From: Candidatus Falkowbacteria bacterium
GTDB lineage: Bacteria; Patescibacteriota; Patescibacteriia; Patescibacteriales; Patescibacteriaceae
Reading direction: 5' to 3'
Length of the DNA stretch: 38,664 nt
Assembly: GCA_037130845.1 (NCBI GenBank)
Contig: JBAXSE010000013.1
Span: forward strand, 1 to 38,664
Shown: in pieces, positions 3,489 to 26,706 of the stretch
Layout of the letters: each line of letters opens with the position of its first letter
Numbering within the stretch: position 1 is the first letter of the stretch
Position numbers and translations under genes: made by a program
Notes under the pieces: model-generated
What the model was told of the DNA's origin: nothing
Database searches by the model: none
Seen by the model: only the letters and a program-made list of their open reading frames with translations

Positions 3489-6386
3489 TTAGTAATACTT
3501 TTTTAACAGGCTTTCAAGTATCCGCCAGTCGATTGGCTTTTGGATATAGTCGTTACTGCCGGCTTCCAGCGCTTTTTCTTTGTCGCCTGATAAGGCGTGC
3601 GCTGTTTGTGTTATTATTATTACCTCGTGGCTGATAGATCGGATTTGTCTTATGGCGGAATAGCCGTCGAGTTTGGGCAGTTTAATATCCATTAGAATCA
3701 AGTTAATATCTTGATTTGCTTGGAAGATTTCGACAGCCTCTTTGCCATCGAATGCAAATATTATATTTGCATTCGGAATGAACTTGTTTATCGCTTTTTC
3801 TAGCAGTTTTTTTGATGCTTTGTCGTCTTCGGCGATTAGTACTAATAATTTGGAATTTATTAAATCGGACGAAGCTGATGCTTGAAGATTTGATTTTGCT
3901 TCTTTGGTGTCTGGCTTTGGGATAAATGGGATGGTGAAATAAAAAGTTGACCCTTTGTCAATCTCGCTTTCAACCCATATTTCTCCTCCTAACATCTTTA
4001 CATATGCTTGGCATATTGATAGCCCGAGTCCCGTTCCTTGCGTTGCTCTAGAATTATCCACTTGAATAAATCGATCAAAAATGGCCGTTATCATATCTTC
4101 GGGAATGCCTATTCCGCTGTCCTTGATGAAGAATTCAAGGTATTCTGATTTATTTTCGGCGTCAATTTTTTTTGCGCATCCAAACTCAATTAGGCCTTCA
4201 TCGCAGTTCTTGATAGCATTTTTTATCAAGTTTAACAGTATGGCTCGTACTTTTTCTTTGTCGGTGATAACGAGATTATCTCCATCGGCAAGCGGCTTCT
4301 TGAATATAAATCCGATATTTTTTTCTTTTGCCTCAAGCTTTAACAAGTCATAGACAAAGCCGAATTGCTCATTAACTGAGGTGACGGTTTGGTTGACATT
4401 CATTTGTCCGGCCTCGATCTTAGACAGATCGACAACGTCGTTAATGATGTCTAGCAGGTGGTTGCCGCAGTTTTTTATTATATTCAAGTATTCTCGATCT
4501 TCTGTACATGTTATATTGTCCAGCAGCAAGTTCGAAAACCCTAGAATGCCGTTCATAGGCGTTCTTATTTCGTGGCTGATATTTGCCAGAAAGGCTGACT
4601 TGAGTCGGTCGCTTTCTTGCGCTTTGTTCATGGCCTTGACCAAGTCTTCTCTCATGTGAATTTGCTCTGTAACATCAATTAGAATGCCTTGAAGGACTGG
4701 GCTCTCATGCTCTGTGTTTAAGAGACGGCTGTATACGGTAGCCGAGATAATTGTGCCATCCTTGGTTCTAAACCGATAAGTGTTATTGCCGGTCAGCACT
4801 CCTTGGATGGAATCGCTTAGATTCTTTCGGCCCCTTTCTCTGTCTTCTTCGACTATCAGATTGAAGATATTCATGCCTTGGCCGATTTCTTTTTCGGTGT
4901 AGCCGAAGACTTCAAACGATTGCTTGTTGAGCAGCGTAGCATTGCCCAGACTGTCAATCTGGAAGACTACTTCCGGCATCATTTCCAGGATGTTGCTCAT
5001 TTTTTGCTGGCTGTCTTCAAGCGCTTTTTCGATTTGTTTGCGTTGCAACGACCCTCCGATCGCGATGCTGATGCCTTCCATAAAATTAATAAACTCAAGA
5101 GTGAACTGGTTTTTTCGCAAGTCGTTTAGCTGCAATAGTCCGATTATTTCTTTGTTTATTTTGAGCGGTATCAGGGCAACCGATAAATATCCTTCGTGGA
5201 TACAACGATTGCGCGGGTTGTGCCTAGGGTCTTGTTCCGGAGAGAGGCTGAGTAAATCTAGCAAATTATTGATCCATGCGCTGCCATAATTGGTAAATAG
5301 TTGGTTATTGCTGTCTGTTTTGCCAGAAACAACTAATCCGCAAGTGCATTCGAGGCTAATTTCTCCTTGTTCGTTGTGGCAAAAAGCTTGATTTTTGCTG
5401 ATGAGCGATCTTTCTGCTATGAGAAATTTATTGTCAAAGCCTTTGCTGGCGTAATAAGGGAAGTCGTGTTCTTGTTTAAGTCTTATGCCGACAGCGCTTA
5501 TGTTTAATCTCCTTTTGATAATGCTTATAATCTTGTCGATAGTTTCTTCTAGTGAATATGTTTCATTAAGGATTTTGAGTATCTCGATAAACATTTCTTG
5601 ATTGCTTTCGTGCTTTTTCCTTTTTGTAACATCTTTGCTGATACCGCGGTAGCCTAATAATTCGCCATTTTTGTCCTGTATGGGATAGCCATTAGTCAAG
5701 AAACAGACGGGCTGTCCATTCTTATGAAGATTCCAATTCTCTAAATCAACTATGGCTTTTTTTTCTGCTGCGATGTTGTTTAGCACTTCTTTGATGCGAG
5801 CCTGTTCATTCTCCGGCATCAGATCATAGAGCGTGATGCCAATAATCTCGTTAGGTGAATACCCTAATGTATCTTCTATTTGTTTTGAACAGTAAGTGTA
5901 TTCCGAGTTTGAGTTTATCTCCCAGGCTATATTGGATGAACTAAGGACGATGTCCTTAAACCGTTGCTTGCTTTCTTGCAGCTCAAGCTGCCTCCTTATT
6001 TCCGATGTCATATCCCGAGATACAATTTGAACAAATTCGATTGCATTGCCGTTATAAATCGGTGACATAGTTGAACTGACCCACGCAATTGTGGTGTCTC
6101 CTGAGTTGATTGGCCTGTAGTTGGCTTTTGTAACAATGCCTTCTAGGCATTTGTTGAAGATTTCTCGCATATGGCCGGCAGTATCTACTTGGAAAAACGG
6201 CAACTCATAAAAGAGCTTGCCAATCAAGCTATTTTCGCCGTTTTCTTGCGTAATGGCTATTGCTTTTGAATTACAGGTAATAATTATCTCATTTCTATCG
6301 ATAATAAATATGGCGTCAGAGCTATTGAGAAAGTAATTTTGATACAGTTTGCTTAGCTCGGCTTCTCCCGGTGAGTCGTTTTTCAT
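3489..6386 (-). CDS. Hybrid sensor histidine kinase (multiple PAS, GAF-like, HisKA, HATPase_c, C-terminal receiver)
   Basis: 965-aa ORF. H-box FLANISHEIRTPMNGILGF; ATPase motifs IKDSGIGIP and GTGLGLSI; receiver LVLIAEDD...LILMDIKLPKLDG...TAHA. The N-terminal 580 aa contain repeated PAS-like segments around a GAF-like block. Confidence 0.9.
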   Translation of the reverse strand: MKNDSPGEAELSKLYQNYFLNSSDAIFIIDRNEIIITCNSKAIAITQENGENSLIGKLFYELPFFQVDTAGHMREIFNKCLEGIVTKANYRPINSGDTTIAWVSSTMSPIYNGNAIEFVQIVSRDMTSEIRRQLELQESKQRFKDIVLSSSNIAWEINSNSEYTYCSKQIEDTLGYSPNEIIGITLYDLMPENEQARIKEVLNNIAAEKKAIVDLENWNLHKNGQPVCFLTNGYPIQDKNGELLGYRGISKDVTKRKKHESNQEMFIEILKILNETYSLEETIDKIISIIKRRLNISAVGIRLKQEHDFPYYASKGFDNKFLIAERSLISKNQAFCHNEQGEISLECTCGLVVSGKTDSNNQLFTNYGSAWINNLLDLLSLSPEQDPRHNPRNRCIHEGYLSVALIPLKINKEIIGLLQLNDLRKNQFTLEFINFMEGISIAIGGSLQRKQIEKALEDSQQKMSNILEMMPEVVFQIDSLGNATLLNKQSFEVFGYTEKEIGQGMNIFNLIVEEDRERGRKNLSDSIQGVLTGNNTYRFRTKDGTIISATVYSRLLNTEHESPVLQGILIDVTEQIHMREDLVKAMNKAQESDRLKSAFLANISHEIRTPMNGILGFSNLLLDNITCTEDREYLNIIKNCGNHLLDIINDVVDLSKIEAGQMNVNQTVTSVNEQFGFVYDLLKLEAKEKNIGFIFKKPLADGDNLVITDKEKVRAILLNLIKNAIKNCDEGLIEFGCAKKIDAENKSEYLEFFIKDSGIGIPEDMITAIFDRFIQVDNSRATQGTGLGLSICQAYVKMLGGEIWVESEIDKGSTFYFTIPFIPKPDTKEAKSNLQASASSDLINSKLLVLIAEDDKASKKLLEKAINKFIPNANIIFAFDGKEAVEIFQANQDINLILMDIKLPKLDGYSAIRQIRSISHEVIIITQTAHALSGDKEKALEAGSNDYIQKPIDWRILESLLKKYY

Positions 6387-7870: not shown

Positions 7871-8953
7871 ATGCCTAAGTGCGGAAAAATTAAGTCCGGA
7901 TTTACTTTAATTGAGCTGTTGGTTGTTATTGTGATTATTGGAGTGTTGGCCAGCTTGACAATGCTGGCCTTGAATAACGCTCGAGCCAAGAGTAGGGATG
8001 CTAAGCGGGTTAATGATATTCGGCAGATTAGCACTGCTGTTGAATTGTATTATGCTGAATACGGTATTTATCCTAGTTCTATTGCTAATGCTATTATTAG
8101 CGCTGATGGCACTAAAACATATATGGCCAAGACGCCGACTAATCCCAGTCCGATGAACGATGGCAGTTGCGGCGCTGACAATTACACTTATGCTACCACC
8201 TCGGATGCTACCGATTATTCATTGAACTTTTGTTTGGCTTATGGCGCAGGCGCTTTGTCGCCCGGCATTGGTTCGGTGAGCAAAGGCGGTTTTGATACCG
8301 CTCCCGGATTGATCGGCTGGTGGAAATTTTCTGACGGCAATAGTCCGGTAATTGATAGCAGCGGTAAAAGCAATAGCGGCTCGAATAATGGAGCAACTTG
8401 GGGCGCTGACAGCGGCCAATATGGCGGAGGGGCCTACACCTTCGATGGCGTTAATGATGCCATAGCTACTAATTCAAACATCTTGAATAACGCGACCGAA
8501 TTTACAATCGCTTTTTGGACCAAGCCATTGAGTTTTGGCGGTTGGAAAGGAATGATCGGCAAAGGTACGAGCGATACTAATGTTATAACGGTGCAGGCGG
8601 ATACGGGCGGGCGCATCTATGTCGACGTTGACAACGGTGTGTCAAATTCTTTTGCCAATACTGGCTTGGGTGTTTTGTCAGTCGGCCAGTGGGCGCACGT
8701 GGCGGCCGTTTATCAGGGTAGCGGCGCTACTAATGCTGATCGGGTAAAAGTCTATGTTAATGGCGCTAACTTGGCATTAACTTTTAGCGGAACGATCCCA
8801 ACGCAAACAGCTACATCCAACGCCGGCATTCTCTATATTGGTCAGCTCGGTTATGCCAGCAATTTCTATAATGGAATTATGGATGATGTGCGTATTTACA
8901 GCCGCAGTTTATTGCCCGAAGAGATAAGCGCGTTGTATAATTTTTCTAAATAA
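7871..8953 (+). CDS. Prepilin-type (type IV pilin-like) protein fused to a LamG/concanavalin-A-like lectin domain
   Basis: Start ATG7871 gives MPKCGKIKSG|FTLIELLVVIVIIGVLA, the class III signal/N-methylation motif. The C-terminal ~200 aa resemble Laminin_G_3 (WWKF..G....DSSG..N.G...GA.W, FDG.ND, FT...W.KP, DDVRIYSR.L...EI). Confidence 0.8.
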   Translation: MPKCGKIKSGFTLIELLVVIVIIGVLASLTMLALNNARAKSRDAKRVNDIRQISTAVELYYAEYGIYPSSIANAIISADGTKTYMAKTPTNPSPMNDGSCGADNYTYATTSDATDYSLNFCLAYGAGALSPGIGSVSKGGFDTAPGLIGWWKFSDGNSPVIDSSGKSNSGSNNGATWGADSGQYGGGAYTFDGVNDAIATNSNILNNATEFTIAFWTKPLSFGGWKGMIGKGTSDTNVITVQADTGGRIYVDVDNGVSNSFANTGLGVLSVGQWAHVAAVYQGSGATNADRVKVYVNGANLALTFSGTIPTQTATSNAGILYIGQLGYASNFYNGIMDDVRIYSRSLLPEEISALYNFSK

Positions 8954-9968: not shown

Positions 9969-9997
9969 TTGACAAAAGGCCCGGAAAGTCCTAGATT
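9969..9997 (+). promoter_or_regulatory. Sigma70-type promoter upstream of hisS
   Basis: TTGACA (9969-9974), 17-nt spacer, TAGATT (9992-9997). Confidence 0.5.
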
Positions 9998-10083: not shown

Positions 10084-11499
10084 ATGGCAGAAGGCAACAA
10101 AGCCAAGGGCATAGTCAAACCTGAGCGTCCGGGAGGATTCCTGGATTTTTTACCGGCCGATTATCTGGCGCGGGAAAGAATCTTTGGCATCATAGCAAAA
10201 GTTTTCCGGTCTTATGGCTACGATCCGATCGAAACACCGATGGTGGAATTTGCAAAATCCCTTGTCGGCGAAGACGAAACATCGAAAAATATATTCTATA
10301 TTTCCAACAAGAATAAGAATATGACGCAAGAAGGGCAGTTGGGTTTGCGTTTTGACCACACTGTACCCTTTGCCAGATTGTTAGCGGCTAATCCATACAA
10401 CGCCGACACTAAAGAAGGCATTAAACTGCCTTGGCGCCGTATGGTGGTTGGTCCGGTGTTCAGGGGCGAAAGTCCGCAGAAAGGGCGTTACCGCCAGTTC
10501 TATCAATTCGATGTCGATATAGTCGGAGTTTCTTCCATGATGGCAGATGCTGAGATTGTGGCTATAATCTATGAAACTCTGACAGCTTTAGGGCTTGATG
10601 ATTTTGTAATCAAGATTAATAATCGCAAGTTATTAAATGGCTTGGCGGAATTATTGGATGTCCACGATAGGGCGGAAGTAAATCGAGATGATATTACCAA
10701 GGCTATTTTTAGAATCTTGGATAAATTGGATAAAATCGGCCTGGATCAGGTATTGTTTGAATTAACGCAAGAGCCTGACAGCATCTTCGATCCGGCGCCT
10801 AATTTATCGTCAGAGGCTGGAGAAAAGATCAAATCTTTTATTAATATCGATGGTGACAACTACGAGAAATTAATAAAAGCTAAAACAGTCTTTGCGGGTC
10901 TAAGTATCGCCGAAGACGGCATAAAGGAATTAGAGCAGATCTTAGGATTTACAGCTGATCTCGGCGTTCCGAGCGATAAGGTGTTAGTTGACTTTGGCGT
11001 TGCTCGCGGGCTGGATTATTATACCGGTCCGGTGATGGAGACAAGTTTGCTGACTGCGCCGGAATTCGGCAGTGTTTTCTCGGGAGGCCGTTACAACAAT
11101 CTGATGGAACGTTTTACAGGACAAGAATTGCCCGCGGTCGGCGCGTCTATCGGAGTCGATAGATTATTTGCCGCCTTAAGGCAGCTTGGTTTGTTGGACG
11201 TTAGTCGGGCTACCATTACCGATGTTTTGGTAATGCGCATTGCGGACAATCTTGATAGTGAATATCTGGAAATCGCCAAGATAATCAGGCGCTGTGGCCT
11301 GAATACGGAGGTTTCTATGCTTGAAGACAGGACTTTTAAGGCTCAATTCAATTTTGCGTTGGGTCGTGGCGTTAAATACGCCATTATTTACGGAGAAAAT
11401 GAATCAATCAAGCGCACAATCCAGATTAAGAATCTAAGCACTCGAAAACAGACAGAAATTAATTTTTCCGATTTGGAAATATATTTTAATAATATTTAA
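10084..11499 (+). CDS. hisS: Histidyl-tRNA synthetase (class II), of the LRFD.TVPFAR / FYQFDVD sequence type
   Basis: Motifs YDPIETPMVEF, LRFDHTVPFARLLA, GPVFRGESPQKGRYRQFYQFDVDIVG (motif 2), GLDYYTG, GGRYNNL, VGASIGVDRL (motif 3). C-terminal anticodon-binding-like domain (DVLVM...YAIIYGENE). SD GGAG lies 9 nt upstream. Confidence 0.9.
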   Translation: MAEGNKAKGIVKPERPGGFLDFLPADYLARERIFGIIAKVFRSYGYDPIETPMVEFAKSLVGEDETSKNIFYISNKNKNMTQEGQLGLRFDHTVPFARLLAANPYNADTKEGIKLPWRRMVVGPVFRGESPQKGRYRQFYQFDVDIVGVSSMMADAEIVAIIYETLTALGLDDFVIKINNRKLLNGLAELLDVHDRAEVNRDDITKAIFRILDKLDKIGLDQVLFELTQEPDSIFDPAPNLSSEAGEKIKSFINIDGDNYEKLIKAKTVFAGLSIAEDGIKELEQILGFTADLGVPSDKVLVDFGVARGLDYYTGPVMETSLLTAPEFGSVFSGGRYNNLMERFTGQELPAVGASIGVDRLFAALRQLGLLDVSRATITDVLVMRIADNLDSEYLEIAKIIRRCGLNTEVSMLEDRTFKAQFNFALGRGVKYAIIYGENESIKRTIQIKNLSTRKQTEINFSDLEIYFNNI

Positions 11500-11513: not shown

Positions 11514-13169
11514 ATGGAAAGGACTATTAGTCTAGATGGTCGCACTTTAACGCTGCAAGACGTTGTCTTGATAGCTCGCGGCTATCGCGGCCAAGACGGA
11601 CATCAACATTATCCATATGTTGAGTTATCCGAACAAGCACAAGCAGATATTGGCAGTTTTCGCCACGGCCTTGATCTTCGGATCGCGGCTGGCGATATTA
11701 TCTACGGTGTCAATACCGGTTGCGGTGTCAAGAAAGGCACTATCATTGATCAGAAAGAGATCGATGCCTATCAGGCTCATTATATTCCGGCGCATTGTGT
11801 CGGTTATGGCGAACCTTTTGATGAAGAAATTGTCAGAGCCGCTCTTGTTTTGCGGGTCAACTCTTTCGCCTTGGGAAATTCCGGAATCAGGCTGGAAACC
11901 TGCAATAAATTGTTGGAAATCTACAACAAGGGCGTGATTCCCTTTGTACCCGAACAGGGTTCGGTGGGCTCCAGCGGTGATTTGTGCCCGTTGGCTCATG
12001 TTGCGGCAGTCATTACTGGCGTCGAAGGACAACAAGCATTCTACCACGGCAAATTGATGCAAGCGGCAGAAGCTTTGTCGCTTGCCGGCATCGATCCGAT
12101 AGTATTAAAAGCCAAAGAAGCGATGGGCTTGACTAACGGCGCAACCTTAACTTTAGCCATGGGCTTGCTTGCTATTCATGATAGCAAAAAATTAATAGCG
12201 TATTCCCATATGGCGGCAGCATTGTCGCTTGAGGCGATCCGCGGTGAAAAAAACGCCTTTGACCCCAGAATCCACGAGGCCAGAAAGAACCAGCATAGCG
12301 CCAGAGTAGCGAAAATCATTCGTGACCTGACCAGCGGTTCAGACCGCATGACTACGTCAGCTAGAGATGTCTGTTTGACGGATGAGAAGAAATCGAAGAA
12401 ATATCAGGACGATGCTAAATCAAGGCCGACTCCTCGGGTCCAGGATGCCTATTCTTTCCGCGCCTATGCCCAGGTGGCAGGACCGGTGGTTAAAGCATTC
12501 GAGTATGCCGAAGAAGTCTTTTTGTCGGAAATGAATGCAGCTACAGATAATCCATTGATCTTTAAGAGCGGATTCGGGGAGAATGAAAGGTTTGAAGCGA
12601 TATCCGGTGGCAATTTTCATGGCGAACCGTTGGGTCAAGCAGCTGATTTTCTTAAGATTGCCATCCAGCAGTTGGCCAACATTTCCGATCGGCGTTTCTA
12701 TGCCTTGACGATGTCCACGACCAGCTATGGCTTGCCGGATGATTTGGCTGGAGCAATTAATCGCGATCTGAATACGGGATTAATGATCCTCCAATACACG
12801 ACAGCTGCTTTGGTATCAGAGAATAAAGCATTATGTTATCCTTCGGTTATCGATTCTATTCCGACTTCTGCAAACCAAGAAGATTATGTCAGTATGTCAA
12901 CTATCGGCGCGCGTAATCTGCGCAAGGTGATAAAAAATACTTATGGCGTTATCGGTGCCGAATTATTGGCTGCTGCCCAGGGCATATCACTGACCGAAGA
13001 CCAGCTAAGGCCGCTCGAGCTTGATGGCTTGGGAAGAGAAACTACCTTTGTTTATAAGAAGGTCCGCCAGGTAGTCGCCGCAATGTATGAAGATCGTTAT
13101 ATCCACAAAGATTTCAAGGCTTTGGTCGATTTCATGATAAAGTCTGATCCTCAGGATTTCTTACCATAG
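11514..13169 (+). CDS. hutH: Histidine ammonia-lyase-like MIO enzyme (aromatic amino acid lyase family)
   Basis: Collinear with HAL: YGVNTGCG, GSVGSSGDLCPLAH (MIO loop), LTNG, DPRIHEAR, QDAYSFR, TDNPL, SGGNFHGEP, TAALVSENK, PTSANQEDYVSM. AGGAG lies 6 nt before the ATG, which is only 14 nt after the hisS stop. Confidence 0.85.
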   Translation: MERTISLDGRTLTLQDVVLIARGYRGQDGHQHYPYVELSEQAQADIGSFRHGLDLRIAAGDIIYGVNTGCGVKKGTIIDQKEIDAYQAHYIPAHCVGYGEPFDEEIVRAALVLRVNSFALGNSGIRLETCNKLLEIYNKGVIPFVPEQGSVGSSGDLCPLAHVAAVITGVEGQQAFYHGKLMQAAEALSLAGIDPIVLKAKEAMGLTNGATLTLAMGLLAIHDSKKLIAYSHMAAALSLEAIRGEKNAFDPRIHEARKNQHSARVAKIIRDLTSGSDRMTTSARDVCLTDEKKSKKYQDDAKSRPTPRVQDAYSFRAYAQVAGPVVKAFEYAEEVFLSEMNAATDNPLIFKSGFGENERFEAISGGNFHGEPLGQAADFLKIAIQQLANISDRRFYALTMSTTSYGLPDDLAGAINRDLNTGLMILQYTTAALVSENKALCYPSVIDSIPTSANQEDYVSMSTIGARNLRKVIKNTYGVIGAELLAAAQGISLTEDQLRPLELDGLGRETTFVYKKVRQVVAAMYEDRYIHKDFKALVDFMIKSDPQDFLP

Positions 13170-13186: not shown

Positions 13187-13218
13187 GCCGACCTTCGGAC
13201 CTGGGTCGGCTTTTTTTT
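13187..13218 (+). terminator. Rho-independent terminator after the hisS/HAL-like operon
   Basis: Stem gccgacc (13187-13193) / ggtcggc (13204-13210), followed by tttttttt. Confidence 0.7.
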
Positions 13219-13251: not shown

Positions 13252-13279
13252 TTGACAAAACTAGGAATCATGCTAGAAT
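13252..13279 (+). promoter_or_regulatory. Sigma70-type promoter for the GNAT/tRNA-His unit
   Basis: TTGACA (13252-13257), 16-nt spacer, TAGAAT (13274-13279). Confidence 0.5.
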
Positions 13280-13326
13280 ATTGAACAAAATAAAAATATC
13301 AGTTCATTAATAAAAAGGGTTAAAAG

Positions 13327-13995
13327 ATGCAAAAAAATACCTGCACTTATAGGAAAATAAATAACCTTGATAATGCCGCAGAAGCTGAAAAGTTAGCGCG
13401 TTGCTATCAGGAGGTTTTTGCCGGTTATCCTTGGAATGAATACAAGAAATGCCCTGATTGCGGGGTGAGGTGGGGCAAAGAAGATGCGCCGGAAGATGGA
13501 CGTTGTTCAAAATGTGATGCTACTCCCGTTCTTGTTGATTTCTGGGCGAAGGAGGATGTTATAAATGATTTCCAAAAACAATTACAAAGCTCCAGCGGCG
13601 TGTTGTGTGTTGCGGTTAATTCCAGAGACGAGATTACGGGTTTCTGTTCCGGTTACGAAACTACTCCCGAAGAATTGGAAAAGCATTTGCAGCTTCCTGA
13701 ATTGGCCAAATGGTTGCGTTGTTATTTTCCCAATGGTGTTAGATTCGGTTATCAAGATGAGATCGGCGTTCTCGATTCGTATCGAGGGCAGAAGATTGCT
13801 ACCGAACTTTTCAAGAAAAGAATGGAAGATTTTAAGGCAAGTGGTTTGGATATAGCTGTATTAAGAACCAAGACTATGCCTCCGACCATAACCTTTAAAT
13901 GGTACCCTCGATTGGGTTATAGTGTCATCCAATGTTATCATGATGATGATTGCCGTGTAATTATGGCGACAGAAATCAAGAGTATTCAGTTGTAG
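13327..13995 (+). CDS. GNAT-family N-acyltransferase with an inserted CxxC...CxxC zinc ribbon
   Basis: GNAT core YQDEIGVLDSYRGQKIATELFKKRMEDFKASGLDIAVLRT (acetyl-CoA motif-A-like R-G-Q-x-I-A) plus ...RLGYSVI. Zn ribbon CPDCG-x15-CSKC at aa 42-63. Confidence 0.7.
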   Translation: MQKNTCTYRKINNLDNAAEAEKLARCYQEVFAGYPWNEYKKCPDCGVRWGKEDAPEDGRCSKCDATPVLVDFWAKEDVINDFQKQLQSSSGVLCVAVNSRDEITGFCSGYETTPEELEKHLQLPELAKWLRCYFPNGVRFGYQDEIGVLDSYRGQKIATELFKKRMEDFKASGLDIAVLRTKTMPPTITFKWYPRLGYSVIQCYHDDDCRVIMATEIKSIQL

Positions 13996-14019
13996 AACAG
14001 TTGAGCTTTACATGCCGAT

Positions 14020-14094
14020 GGACGCGTAGCTCAGTTGGCCCAGAGCAATGGATTGTGGCTCCATTTGTCACGGGTTCGATTCCCGTCGCGTCCA
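14020..14094 (+). tRNA. tRNA-His (anticodon GUG), discriminator A73, no genomically encoded G-1, no encoded CCA
   Basis: Hand-folded cloverleaf. Acceptor GGACGCG (14020-26) pairs with CGCGTCC (14087-93). U8A9. D arm GCTC/AGTTGGCCCA/GAGC. Anticodon arm ATGGA / TT-GTG-GC / TCCAT with GTG at 14055-57. 5-nt variable loop. T arm ACGGG/TTCGATT/CCCGT. Position -1 is T14019 and position 73 is A14094. Confidence 0.9.
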
Positions 14095-14098
14095 CGAA

Positions 14099-14126
14099 CG
14101 GCAATTATAATGATTGCCGTTTTTTA
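14099..14126 (+). terminator. Rho-independent terminator directly after tRNA-His
   Basis: Stem cggcaat (14099-14105) / attgccg (14113-14119), followed by ttttttatt. Confidence 0.7.
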
Positions 14127-14162: not shown

Positions 14163-14975
14163 ATGAAATATGATGAGACGATAATTAAGATATCGGGCGC
14201 TAAGCCGGGCAAGACGCTGGCTGTTTTTGCCGGTGTCCATGGCAATGAAACCACGGGCATCAAGGCTCTTAAGCAAGTCGTAAAAAACATTAAAATAGAC
14301 GCTGGTACAGTATATTTTGTTTTGGCTAATCCGGAGGCGATTGGAAAGAATGTCAGGCAAGTTGATAAGAATTTAAATCGATGCTTTTTTCTCGGCAATA
14401 AAGGCAGGACGGCAGAGGATAAGCGCGCTAGAGAGCTGATGAAGCTGTTGGATAAATGCGAAGCGTTGTTAGATTTGCATGCCAGTAACAACCCCAATTC
14501 AATACCGTTCATCATCTGTGAAAAACACGCATTTCAAGCTGCCAGCATCTTTGATTTCAAAATTGTATCACATGGCTGGGATGCTTTTGAGCCCGGCGCG
14601 ACTGATGGCTACATGAATACTCAGCGCAAAATAGCCTTGTGTCTGGAGTGCGGTTCTGTACACGATAATAACGAACCATTAGCCGTTAAATCAATTATGC
14701 AGTTTCTTAAATTTTTTGGCGCAATTAAAGATGCAACTGTTAAGTATAATCATAAGAAACAAAAAATGATTAAGATTGTCAAAGCCGGTTATAAGAAATC
14801 GGAGCAGCTTGCCTTTGCCAAAAATTATAATGATTTTGCCAAGTTAAAACCCGGAGAAATATACGCCACGGATGGACCGAATAAATATAAAGCGGGGACG
14901 AACCAATGCATTATCTTTCCAAATATAAATAAAAAAATTGGCGAAGAAATATTCTTGATTGGCAGAACGATGTAA
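14163..14975 (+). CDS. Succinylglutamate desuccinylase/aspartoacylase (AstE/AspA) family zinc deacylase
   Basis: Family signature LAVFAGVHGNETTG (H-x-x-E zinc ligands) and LLDLHAS (third His ligand). Size is typical at 270 aa. Confidence 0.75.
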   Translation: MKYDETIIKISGAKPGKTLAVFAGVHGNETTGIKALKQVVKNIKIDAGTVYFVLANPEAIGKNVRQVDKNLNRCFFLGNKGRTAEDKRARELMKLLDKCEALLDLHASNNPNSIPFIICEKHAFQAASIFDFKIVSHGWDAFEPGATDGYMNTQRKIALCLECGSVHDNNEPLAVKSIMQFLKFFGAIKDATVKYNHKKQKMIKIVKAGYKKSEQLAFAKNYNDFAKLKPGEIYATDGPNKYKAGTNQCIIFPNINKKIGEEIFLIGRTM

Positions 14976-24069: not shown

Positions 24070-26706
24070 ATGAATGTTGCACAATTAAACACAGAAAAGC
24101 GTCTTGCTACGGCTATTATGCCTTGGAAAGACATCAGCATCGGTTCGGCCGCTATTGTTTCTAGCACTATCGCTAATAGCGGTATTTTTACTTCTACCCA
24201 AACCTTTAAGATTCAAGTTCCGCTTAGTGTTAACGAAAGCGTAACCAGGGATTATGACGGTTATCGCTTGCCAATGGACAAGCTGGACGAAGACGGAGTA
24301 ATCCGAGTCGGCGAGAGCGTCGCCTTGGGTGATGTGCTGGTTGCCATGATTGAATATGATCCACGAGAGTATCAGCCGGAAGAAAAATTGCTCAAAGCAA
24401 TTTTTGGCGACGGTGCTACTAACGTGACCGATCGTTCGGTTACCATGTCTTTCCCTGATCCTGCTATAGTCTATAGCGTCGAAAAAAAACTCGAAGGCAA
24501 AAAAAAGCTGGTGACTGTTTATCTGGCCTTTAAACGTAAACTACGTTTGGGTGATATTCTGGTCGATAGCAAAGGTAACCAAGCAGTTGTCTCGGCTGTT
24601 GTTGCTGATAATGAAATGCCTTATCTGAAAAGCTCGCAAACCAGAGCTCAAATAGTGGTTACGCCGCTCACTGATTGCGGCGAAACGATGGTAGATCATT
24701 TGGATAAACAAAGGCTGGTTGTGGTATATGATACCGAAGATCCCAAGTTTATCCTGATAGCGCCGCCGCTTGATAGGCCAAGCAAAAATAAGAAGTGGTT
24801 ATGCAAAGATGAAGAAGCGCGTTTTGGGGCTATCGCTTGGAAAAAATTAGAACTATTGTCCGGTCAAAAGAATATCGGTTATGGCGTTCAAAGTAGATTG
24901 CGCAACGATGCCCAATTGGTGGATGGCATCAAGATCCGCCAAGAATTTATCACAAGCCTGTTGCATTACAATCTGCCGGCTGTAGCCAGAGAATTTTTGA
25001 CCGTCAAGTCTGACGATGCCAAAGGCTACGGCGATACTGTACAAGCTATTATTAATGGATGGTCTTTGCCCGCAGCGGCTGCTCCGGCTTCGCTAAAGCG
25101 CTATGAAGCGACGATCAAGGCAATGGCCTTGACTATCGGAGTCGATAACGGCAGTAGGCAAGTCGGCTTACTTGATGGCTATAATTATCCCAACCAGGAT
25201 TTGCCAGGTATTGGCGTTTCTTTGTGGGTAACTCCGCAATCAGAGATTTTGGCTCAGTCCCACGGTGAATTGACCGGTGTTGATTATATGGATGATGCTA
25301 TCAAGCAGGCTCAAGGGAAAAAGAAAACAGACAAGATAGAAGTCGGTTTGTTCAGCCAACGCATTTTCGGCCCTCTACGGGATTATGAATGCGCTTGCGG
25401 TAAATACAAGCGAGTCCGCTATAGCGGCATCGTCTGCGATCGTTGCGGTGTCTTGGTAGCGCAAAGCTCTGTGCGCAAAGAACGTTTCGGCCATATCAAC
25501 CTGGCTTTGCCTTGCGTGCATCCTTTGTTCGAAAAAGCAGTTGCCGAGTTATATAAGTCGATCGATTACACGAACACTCCGCAATATTTTGAAGAGCTGA
25601 TCGAAAAAAACTTTGATCTAGAAAAAGCCGATTATCTTTTTGAATGTTCCGAGATAATGAAAAAGTTATCGTTGCCCGAACAGCAGATTCTTAATGTCAT
25701 CCCGGTCATGCCGGCCGGTTGGCGTTCCGATTGGATGTCTTATACTAGCAGTTGGACAATGGATTTAAATTATCTATATAGCAGATTAATGACTCGTAAC
25801 AATCGATTGACTCGATTAATCGACATCAAAGCTCCTTGGATGATTATCTCCAATGAATATCGAATGCTACAAGAGGCTTTGTCTGAATTATTTAATTGCA
25901 CTCATTTGGGGAGTGAGACTCCGCCTGTCGGATTGATCCATAGCCTGCAAGCAGCCGGTCGCAATCTTTATGACAAAAAGGTTAGTTATTCCGGACGTGC
26001 GCTGGTTATCCCAGATGACCGCCTGGCAATCGACGAATGCGTTTTGCCTAGAACTCTGGCAGTCAGATTGTTTGAGCCTTTTGTGCTTCAGCGCTTGATG
26101 GCATCGCCGCCGGAAACTCCTTGCGACCCGATTTGGGACGATTCTTATCCGGATCTGCCTCCTATCTTGGCAGATGTAGTAGTAGATATTGCCGCTGGCA
26201 ATAAGACTACAGTCGATCTAAAGAAGATTGATGAAGATGAAGCTAGAGCTTATCCGGGCTATACCTACAAGACGGCTAGTGGAATGGTTAAAAATAACCA
26301 CCCCGAAGCATTGGAAAAGCTGGAAGCGATTGTTGGCGATAGGGTTGTCCTATTGAGCTCTGTCAGTCAGATAGAATTTGCCGGTTTTTGTCCACGTTTA
26401 AGTAACGAAGAAGTCATCAGACTTCATCCGCAGGCTATTAAGCTTCTTGGTATTTCTCTGGGTAAGGCTGGCAAGGCGTTAGTCTATCTACCCTTGTCTG
26501 ATGATGCTCAAGCGGAAGTCAAAGGTGTTATGTGCGGCCAAGAATGGTCGTATGTTCCTCAGACTCCGAGCGTTGGATATAGCTCTGTTCTTAATAGTAA
26601 TCTCAAGCATCTTGTTTCTAATCCTTGGTTGGATCAACCGGAGCCGGAAACCTGCAAATGGTTGCTATCCTTAAATGATCGATTTTTGCTCAATTATAGC
26701 AAATAG
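24070..26706 (+). CDS. RNA polymerase beta (C-terminal third) / beta-prime (N-terminal third) fusion-like protein lacking catalytic motifs (pseudo-RNAP)
   Basis: 878-aa ORF, AAGGAA SD. Beta-like blocks: PEEKLLKAIFGDGATNVTDRSV, VYLAFKRKLRLGDILVDSKGNQAVVS..EMPY, FLTVKSDD. Beta-prime-like blocks: GLFSQRIFGPLRDYECACGKYKRVRYSGIVCDRCGV, VIPVMPAGWR, LYSRLMTRNNRLTRLIDIKAP..ISNEYRMLQEAL, VSYSGRALVI, LPRTLAVRLFEPF. There is no NADFDGD; the aligned segment is LGISLGKAGKALVYLPL. Confidence 0.85.
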   Translation: MNVAQLNTEKRLATAIMPWKDISIGSAAIVSSTIANSGIFTSTQTFKIQVPLSVNESVTRDYDGYRLPMDKLDEDGVIRVGESVALGDVLVAMIEYDPREYQPEEKLLKAIFGDGATNVTDRSVTMSFPDPAIVYSVEKKLEGKKKLVTVYLAFKRKLRLGDILVDSKGNQAVVSAVVADNEMPYLKSSQTRAQIVVTPLTDCGETMVDHLDKQRLVVVYDTEDPKFILIAPPLDRPSKNKKWLCKDEEARFGAIAWKKLELLSGQKNIGYGVQSRLRNDAQLVDGIKIRQEFITSLLHYNLPAVAREFLTVKSDDAKGYGDTVQAIINGWSLPAAAAPASLKRYEATIKAMALTIGVDNGSRQVGLLDGYNYPNQDLPGIGVSLWVTPQSEILAQSHGELTGVDYMDDAIKQAQGKKKTDKIEVGLFSQRIFGPLRDYECACGKYKRVRYSGIVCDRCGVLVAQSSVRKERFGHINLALPCVHPLFEKAVAELYKSIDYTNTPQYFEELIEKNFDLEKADYLFECSEIMKKLSLPEQQILNVIPVMPAGWRSDWMSYTSSWTMDLNYLYSRLMTRNNRLTRLIDIKAPWMIISNEYRMLQEALSELFNCTHLGSETPPVGLIHSLQAAGRNLYDKKVSYSGRALVIPDDRLAIDECVLPRTLAVRLFEPFVLQRLMASPPETPCDPIWDDSYPDLPPILADVVVDIAAGNKTTVDLKKIDEDEARAYPGYTYKTASGMVKNNHPEALEKLEAIVGDRVVLLSSVSQIEFAGFCPRLSNEEVIRLHPQAIKLLGISLGKAGKALVYLPLSDDAQAEVKGVMCGQEWSYVPQTPSVGYSSVLNSNLKHLVSNPWLDQPEPETCKWLLSLNDRFLLNYSK

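Follow-up and report, generated by a model that had tools for sequence, protein, structure and literature searches.

A zinc-ribbon GNAT family in a conserved histidine gene island of CPR bacteria and its possible role in histidine N-acylation

The DNA analysed here, called the window throughout, is contig JBAXSE010000013.1 of Candidatus Falkowbacteria bacterium (assembly GCA_037130845.1; positions 1 to 38,664, forward strand), and our subject is a gene in it that encodes a protein of the GCN5-related N-acetyltransferase (GNAT) superfamily and lies next to a histidine tRNA gene. A preliminary description of this DNA assigned a promoter, the GNAT open reading frame (ORF), tRNA-His and a terminator to one compact unit, and all four were found where it had put them; these and all further window features named below lie on the plus strand. 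The promoter (13252-13279) is a TG-extended sigma-70-type sequence, TTGACA-16-(TG)cTAGAAT, that scores 11/12 and is the top-scoring site of the 7 kb scanned. The GNAT ORF (13327-13995) runs from an ATG, preceded 8 nt upstream by AAGGG, to a TAG and encodes 222 aa. tRNA-His with anticodon GTG begins 24 nt past the stop codon, its end placed at 14095 by ARAGORN (14020-14095) and at 14094 by Rfam (14020-14094, 69 bits); it is the sole tRNA of the whole 38.7-kb window, with T at position -1 (no encoded G-1), discriminator A73 and no encoded CCA. The unit is closed by an intrinsic terminator at 14096-14122, a hairpin of 12 pairs followed by a T-run. Together with a second intrinsic terminator just upstream of the promoter (13187-13210; 8 bp, 6 of them GC, then T8), it ranks high among 16 matches (third and first, respectively), where shuffled sequences give 7.2±2.7. 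The same order of terminator, TG-extended promoter, GNAT, tRNA-His and terminator is present in L001, a related locus of a different metagenome with a GNAT 79% identical to that of the window (loci are cited by our own numbers, prefixed L). There the promoter lies at 7918-7945, tRNA-His starts only 6 nt past the GNAT stop, the closing terminator (8754-8777) has the same stem as that of the window, and a hairpin with T-run equivalent to 13187-13210 is found. Given this conservation, the layout is beyond chance. A weak promoter-like site inside the GNAT ORF (TTTAAA-18-TATAGT, 13894-13923) makes a separate promoter for tRNA-His possible and is a caveat on co-transcription; its retention in L001 is uninformative because the site overlaps conserved codons.

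The unit is flanked by genes for enzymes that handle histidine or may handle its derivatives. Upstream, a promoter-like site (9969-9997, TTGACA-17-TAGATT, 10/12) precedes a gene for histidyl-tRNA synthetase (HisRS; 10084-11499, 471 aa, Pfam tRNA-synt_His and HGTP_anticodon), which scores 345 bits against the hisS equivalog model TIGR00442 (cut-off 286.75) and in alignment has motifs 2 and 3 of class II synthetases intact, along with HisA and HisB; it is a bona fide hisS. Its subtype is 57-63% identical to HisRS of free-living Desulfobacterota (Desulfobacterales), where the gene stands in generic or his-biosynthesis contexts. Histidine ammonia-lyase (HAL; 11514-13169, 551 aa) begins 14 nt after HisRS in the same orientation, and the two genes have a common promoter and a common terminator, that at 13187-13210. 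HAL matches Pfam Lyase_aromatic with 505 bits, its best matches in the PDB are HALs, and in alignment with the Pseudomonas putida enzyme it retains the histidine-specific residues Y53, H83, N195, Q277, Y280, R283, F329 and E414. The triad that forms its methylidene-imidazolone cofactor is Ser-Ser-Gly (motif GSVGSSGDL) instead of Ala-Ser-Gly. Among the 19 island HALs read this triad is SSG in 12, ASG in 6 and CSG in 1; the window HAL also has an insertion of ~20 residues relative to the P. putida enzyme. HisRS thus adjoins an enzyme that destroys its own amino-acid substrate, and the HisRS-HAL pairing recurs in L056, L058 and L062-L066, with spacings of 1-10 nt or overlap. Downstream of the unit, 14163-14975 encodes a 270-aa zinc amidohydrolase of the AstE/AspA family (Pfam AstE_AspA_cat, 77 bits, and hybrid domain). 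It is like aspartoacylase and succinylglutamate desuccinylase, scores under every NCBIfam equivalog cut-off and is the predicted deacylating partner of the GNAT.

The GNAT itself matches Pfam Acetyltransf_1 (PF00583) weakly, with 25.3 bits against a cut-off of 20.7 and over residues 73-181 only. A word-index search for homologues found just the protein itself and its 79% identical relative, and an exhaustive phmmer search yielded 387 cluster representatives (165 below E 1e-10), whose length is mostly about 200-250 aa. As far as seen, the family is restricted to bacteria of the candidate phyla radiation (CPR) and to DPANN archaea, and it was previously uncharacterised. Its signature is CYxxVFAxxPWNEWKKCxxC...WG...(H/C)C...DFW...GF.WGY...YQDE(I/L)GV..YRGxGIA...RT...P...WY..LGY...GRV. 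In an alignment of 61 members E38 and C42 are invariant, and W36, C45, C63, W73, Y142, R180, Y204 and R210 nearly so. The acyl-CoA pyrophosphate-binding motif, R153-G-Q-K-I-A in the window (13783-13800), fits Q/R-x-x-G-x-G/A: position 153 is Arg in 54/61 and Gln in 7/61, position 156 Gly in 32/61 and Lys in 23/61, followed by I157 and A158. Motif B with its conserved Tyr is also present (WYxxLGY). An AlphaFold 2 model built from the 61-sequence alignment reached a pLDDT of 96.6 and has the standard GNAT α/β fold, with a two-helix insert between β3 and β4 besides the zinc ribbon described below (a model from the single sequence reached 39 and was not used). Sequence model, fold, CoA motif and the motif B Tyr thus all place the protein in the GNAT superfamily. 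A profile search against PDB sequences matched the CoA-binding core alone, at positions about 130-200, so that the N-terminal 130 residues are without a solved relative. Foldseek returned generic acetyl-CoA GNATs overall, headed by arylalkylamine N-acetyltransferases; the matches include 7byy (E 1.5e-7), which we take to be the aminoacyl-tRNA-acetylating toxin ItaT, the tool's own label being just 'bacterial toxin'. Models and structures of FemAB and of Leu/Phe-transferases gave no match to the window GNAT, and no features of the Fem or L/F-transferase kind were found. We conclude that the protein represents a new subfamily of ordinary acyl-CoA-dependent GNATs.

The zinc ribbon near the N terminus (C42, C45 ... 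C60, C63; residues 42-63, nt 13450-13515) lies where the preliminary description had it, with the spacing corrected to CPDC-x14-CSKC from x15. Across the 61 members C42, C45 and C63 vary hardly or not at all, and either C60 or H62 serves as fourth ligand. According to the secondary structure of the AlphaFold 2 model, the ribbon replaces the α1-α2 loop, over about 40 residues. In GNATs this loop walls the acceptor site, and because the ribbon replaces it, a substrate-pocket element is more likely than a nucleic-acid-binding add-on; its placement near the acceptor site follows, by analogy, from general GNAT architecture. The idea of a nucleic-acid-binding add-on is also opposed by bulk charge, the protein being acidic (pI 5.6, net charge -3; family median pI 6.3) and the ribbon itself carrying a net charge of -2.

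To characterize the genomic setting of the family, we used a family motif to scan JGI metagenomes and a single genome of each species and retrieved 48 loci, whose ORFs were called heuristically, clustered by BLASTP and named via Pfam and NCBIfam. Dereplication at 70% GNAT identity left 31 bacterial and 5 DPANN lineages. Near the GNAT, HisRS is encoded in 23 of the 31 bacterial lineages, tRNA-His in 19 and HAL in 14; at least one of the three is present in 24/31, and most of the others are very short contigs. An amidohydrolase is likewise found in 24/31, an M20 enzyme (ArgE/DapE-like) in 16 and an AstE/AspA-like enzyme in 8, the two never together; by locus, AstE/AspA takes the place of M20 in nine, window included. 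tRNA-His makes up 24 of the 27 tRNA genes in the loci (nominal binomial P about 1e-36, a value that overstates independence). The canonical CPR order, HAL - M20 (ArgE/DapE-family) - GNAT - HisRS - tRNA-His, was seen in Saccharibacteria, Paceibacterota, Moranbacteria, CPR3 and Parcubacteria. The window carries the full set in a rearranged form, HisRS-HAL / GNAT-tRNA-His / AstE-like. Given that GNATs are just about 28-45% identical across lineages and that gene order is permuted, the clustering is maintained and not passively inherited. The preliminary description had tied its case to whether orthologues recur beside tRNA genes, and they do; a link to the histidine and tRNA-His system is therefore real. 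The gene associates, however, with an entire histidine island, and the specific mechanisms that the description proposed around tRNA-His or His-tRNA-His found no support. This conserved island appears to be undescribed in CPR bacteria: we found no published account of it in the literature searched, and searches on HAL in Saccharibacteria or CPR, on CPR tRNA-His identity and on histidine racemase with acetyltransferase gave nothing relevant. Rfam matches in the window and 14 related loci were tRNAs only, with no T-box, riboswitch or leader. An origin as a mobile island integrated at tRNA-His was considered and rejected, the island loci showing no integrase and a variable internal gene order.

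Several islands carry further genes or altered parts. A TrpR-like regulator adjoins the GNAT in at least nine loci, and others encode a PRPP-transferase-like protein, a Cof-type HAD hydrolase or a SLOG protein. Long-form HisG (ATP phosphoribosyltransferase with the His-binding C-terminal domain) lies upstream of M20-GNAT-HisRS-tRNA-His in L009 (477-1370; a Saccharibacteria metagenome-assembled genome), L028, L029, L033 and L053; HisG and M20-GNAT have between them an acidic, conserved ORF of ~70-87 aa, and no further his biosynthesis gene is visible in those five loci. An uncharacterised protein of ~350-390 aa with the phosphoribosyl pyrophosphate (PRPP)-binding loop VEDGxFTG recurs in islands without M20 (L011 3409-4575, L026 4173-5237, L037 2206-3288), followed in L026 by a SLOG/LOG-like protein. 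In L041 the true HisRS is preceded by a divergent HisRS paralogue (1466-2767), whose ORF overlaps the stop codon of the GNAT. The paralogue scores 175 bits against the hisS model (<287), has GGYMEF for GRYRQF in motif 2 and has lost the Arg of motif 3; it is probably catalytically dead and HisZ-like. Downstream of M20-GNAT in L010 (2942-3914), a HAD-like ORF and a 97-aa stand-alone HisRS-type anticodon-binding domain overlap in different frames, with tRNA-His 20 nt after the domain and no complete HisRS in the locus; this could reflect a fusion broken by a frameshift, a gene remnant or faulty assembly. L027, ordered M20-GNAT-HisRS-tRNA-His-HAL-tRNA-His, has two distinct tRNA-His(GTG) genes, at 2801-2876 and 4564-4638, that flank HAL and both have G-1:C73. 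This pair is the normal identity element for bacterial HisRS. Among the tRNA-His genes read (window, L001, L009-L015, L026-L047, L056 and L058), positions -1 and 73 are G:C in fewer than half and U:A in five; G:U, A:U, G:A, A:C, C/A, U/C and C/C also occur, and U-1:A73 and A-1:U73 retain a possible eighth acceptor pair.

Contexts reached from homologues of the window HisRS (L056, L058 and L063-L066) extend the picture to a sister family. L058 holds AstE, the zinc-ribbon GNAT and TrpR (both minus strand), tRNA-His, urocanase, HisRS and HAL; L066 has the same set minus urocanase, with AstE past HAL and after two transposase genes. In L056 (1459-4070), L063 (3694-6337) and L064 (79-2036) a different cassette is found: TrpR, a CntK-like (histidine-racemase-type) protein whose ORF overlaps the start of the next gene, a ribbon-less sister GNAT (48-63 bits against the family hidden Markov model), a VanX-type M15 peptidase, tRNA-His and urocanase, and then HisRS and HAL. 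Urocanase lies upstream on the opposite strand in L056, and the L064 contig begins within the racemase gene, so TrpR is unseen there. This cassette hints at D-histidine chemistry in the sister family. L065 encodes HisRS-HAL-HAD...SLOG-tRNA-His without a family GNAT, which indicates that the tRNA goes with the island and not with the GNAT. The proposal that tRNA-His follows the GNAT rather than HisRS was dropped: four HisRS loci without the GNAT have no tRNA, but in L065 tRNA-His is present 5.3 kb downstream. All five DPANN lineages have only the GNAT-M20 pair, and no histidine genes were seen around it in these loci. Within ~1.2 kb upstream of that pair a second, ordinary GNAT is encoded, divergently in L017 (4930-5484) and L021 (5003-5455) and co-oriented in L018 (4176-4745) and L019 (4211-4756).

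The position next to the GNAT is thus filled by M20 or AstE/AspA enzymes in ribbon loci and by a VanX-type M15 enzyme in the ribbon-less sister family, three unrelated families that share their chemistry. Such non-orthologous swaps in one slot argue strongly that the pair acylates and deacylates one small molecule with a free carboxylate, and the CPR context points to histidine or a close derivative as this molecule. Given that the island enzymes mostly handle free histidine (HAL, HisG, CntK-like racemase) or urocanate (urocanase), histidine is favoured over tRNA as the acceptor. We therefore put forward, tentatively and with a probability of roughly 0.4, that the GNAT N-acylates histidine and the adjacent amidohydrolase reverses the reaction; the acceptor is read from the gene neighbourhood, and we infer the cycle and its role as well. 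With acyl-CoA as donor, the GNAT would place an acetyl group, or another short acyl, on the α-amino group of free histidine, the zinc ribbon forming part of the acceptor pocket, and the N-acyl-amino-acid amidohydrolase (AstE/AspA-like in the window, M20 ArgE/DapE-like elsewhere) would take it off again. N-acyl-histidine is not expected to be a substrate of HAL, which presumably needs a free amine, or of HisRS. The pair could then set how histidine is split between being parked, degraded by HAL or charged onto tRNA-His by HisRS, in cells presumably unable to make histidine, and tRNA-His would be on the transcript as a co-regulated histidine gene of the island and not as a substrate of the enzyme. 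A variant in which HAL runs in reverse and acetylation traps histidine made from urocanate was rejected: several islands encode urocanase, a sign of the catabolic direction, and HisRS alone would pull the equilibrium.

A number of points weigh against histidine N-acylation. Fold similarity is without power to tell GNAT acceptors apart, and a cluster that provides for both adding and removing the acyl group would seem to run a futile cycle in the absence of regulation. The DPANN loci, being without histidine genes, indicate that histidine specificity may not extend to the whole family. Retrieval of the family loci relied on one peptide pattern, PW[NH]E[WY]K[KR]C, from the PWNEW-sharing subset of the 61-sequence alignment, which biases the sampling and leaves divergent members under-represented. 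Many loci are metagenomic contigs of uncertain taxonomy, the lineages are statistically dependent, and taxonomic labels may err, as in L024, labelled 'Gammaproteobacteria', which has neighbours in common with CPR3 loci. Two features of gene order fit His-tRNA-His as substrate equally well: HisRS is typically the very next gene after the GNAT (stop and start codons overlap in L009, L028 and L041), and in seven loci (window, L001, L011, L012, L045-47) the GNAT lies less than 100 nt from tRNA-His with no HisRS between them.

Of the other acceptors, a compound of histidine metabolism other than L-histidine is rather unlikely: D-histidine (for detoxification or D/L conversion), Glu, hut intermediates of the N-formyl- or formimino-glutamate type, histamine or histidinol would be acylated, and the corresponding N-acyl compound would be the substrate of the amidohydrolase. 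The CntK-like racemase and the M15 enzyme of the VanX-type (D-specific) family beside the sister GNAT favour this, as do the urocanase of some islands, the annotation of AstE relatives as acting on N-succinyl-glutamate and the arylalkylamine N-acetyltransferases at the top of the Foldseek matches. However, no racemase was seen in zinc-ribbon loci and neither HutI nor HutF in any locus inspected, the M20 and AstE families prefer a free α-carboxylate on the acceptor, an argument against histamine and histidinol, and the linkage to HisRS and tRNA-His is explained no better than by histidine itself. Acetylation of the α-amine of His-tRNA-His by TacT/AtaT/ItaT-like chemistry in a chromosomal, regulatory role, with peptidyl-tRNA hydrolase (Pth) freeing N-acetyl-His for recycling by the amidohydrolase, we consider unlikely. 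It would account for the amidohydrolase as well as for the tight and recurrent clustering of GNAT, HisRS and tRNA-His, and it can draw on 7byy and on the degenerate HisRS paralogue of L041, lacking the arginines of motifs 2 and 3, right after the GNAT. The island enzymes acting on free histidine or urocanate point the other way. Doubtful, too, is the wider proposal that the island serves histidine-specific translational control, the GNAT acetylating His-tRNA-His and HAL draining the excess. The TacT/AtaT-type toxin suggested in the preliminary description was not borne out: no small antitoxin gene (DUF1778/RHH type) was found in the window or in ~50 related loci, the protein is acidic, and DPANN members have no tRNA or aminoacyl-tRNA synthetase neighbours.

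Acetylation of proteins, either at N termini in the manner of RimI/Ard1 or at lysines, for example regulating HisRS, with the ribbon as a dock for protein or ribosome, is improbable; it leaves the near-obligate pairing with amidohydrolases of three families and the HAL, HutU, HisG and racemase neighbours unexplained, and similarity to Nα-acetyltransferases is confined to the generic CoA-binding core. A histidyl transferase of the Fem or L/F kind, using His-tRNA-His as donor and leaving a His-X amide for a peptidase to cleave, would suit a cluster of aminoacyl-tRNA synthetase, tRNA, GNAT-fold protein and peptidase-family enzyme. It is nevertheless most improbable: Fem and L/F-transferase families lack acyl-CoA motifs, and the GNAT family keeps both R/Q-x-x-G-x-A and the motif B Tyr throughout, which excludes that mechanism. 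There is hardly any room for chance or historical adjacency of an unrelated housekeeping GNAT to a tRNA gene. CPR genomes are compact, unrelated genes often abut in them, and the arrangement of the window itself was seen in only two close relatives; yet histidine genes cluster with the GNAT in 24/31 lineages of several CPR phyla despite rearrangement, so that synteny effectively refutes it.

One further ORF of the window, distant from the island, deserves mention. At 24070-26706 (plus strand) an 878-aa ORF is found in which C-terminal sequence of RNA polymerase β (Rpb2 domain 6) runs on into N-terminal sequence of β'. The β' part has a zinc finger (CxCGKYK...CxxCG) and Rpb1 domain 1, and the catalytic motif NADFDGD was not found in it; the ORF resembles a β/β' junction fragment.

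Much of microbial diversity belongs to CPR bacteria and DPANN archaea, which presumably rely on hosts for amino acids and in whose genomes many genes have no assigned function. Defined here is a populous and structurally confident family of uncharacterised acetyltransferases from these organisms, together with a conserved operon that unites an aminoacyl-tRNA synthetase and its tRNA with an enzyme destroying the same amino acid and with an acylation/deacylation pair. Should the pair make and break N-acyl-histidine, it would be a convergent bacterial counterpart of the animal N-acetylhistidine system and would give auxotrophic symbionts an uncomplicated means of controlling the use of an amino acid in short supply. 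Should His-tRNA-His be the substrate, aminoacyl-tRNA acetylation would extend from toxins to normal physiology; the GNAT would then be the first aminoacyl-tRNA acetyltransferase to serve as a housekeeping enzyme and not as a toxin, and genome-reduced episymbionts could throttle protein synthesis by histidine supply.

Compared with known systems, the window GNAT is just 10-19% identical to single-domain acetyl-CoA GNATs (Ard1/Naa10/RimI, tabtoxin-resistance protein, phosphinothricin/methionine-sulfoximine-type enzymes, insect arylalkylamine N-acetyltransferases) and differs from them in its PWNEW motif, the zinc ribbon in place of the α1-α2 loop, the DFW motif and the histidine-centred genomic context. 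TacT, AtaT and ItaT toxins are basic proteins; the window GNAT has their fold and, judging by its CoA motifs, their use of acetyl-CoA, and linkage to a tRNA and a synthetase makes an aminoacyl-tRNA acceptor conceivable, but it is larger, acidic, equipped with a zinc-ribbon insert, without an antitoxin and in an operon with housekeeping and metabolic genes. Like pylTSBCD, the island encodes a tRNA, its cognate synthetase and enzymes for the same amino acid together; unlike pylTSBCD, it has a standard HisRS and GTG tRNA-His and its enzymes are catabolic or handling rather than biosynthetic, and nothing suggests a non-canonical amino acid.

A cluster that couples a GNAT to a deacylase of the M20 or AstE family is reminiscent of ArgA-ArgE and AstA-AstE, and the sister family adds a racemase-like gene. 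A Geobacillus route attributed to Sakai et al. in 2006 is said to convert D- to L-amino acids with a GNAT N-succinyltransferase, an N-succinylamino-acid racemase and an M20 hydrolase. Unlike such pathways, in which the amino acid is acylated, transformed and deacylated, ribbon loci have no identified enzyme that transforms N-acyl-histidine, and a synthetase and a tRNA are part of the cluster. A parallel to the proposed chemistry is vertebrate HisAT/NAT16 together with the enzymes that hydrolyse N-acetylhistidine, a system in which acetyl-CoA and His give Nα-acetyl-His and a zinc amidohydrolase reverses the step. M20 and AstE/AspA are also the families of animal aminoacylases (M20-type anserinase/aminoacylase, and aspartoacylase for N-acetyl-aspartate). 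To our knowledge, NAT16 is the sole characterised histidine N-acetyltransferase. It is a double GNAT that binds histidine between its two domains (PMC12219266), unlike the 222-aa window protein, a single GNAT with a zinc ribbon according to the AlphaFold 2 model, so that any histidine activity common to the two would be convergent.

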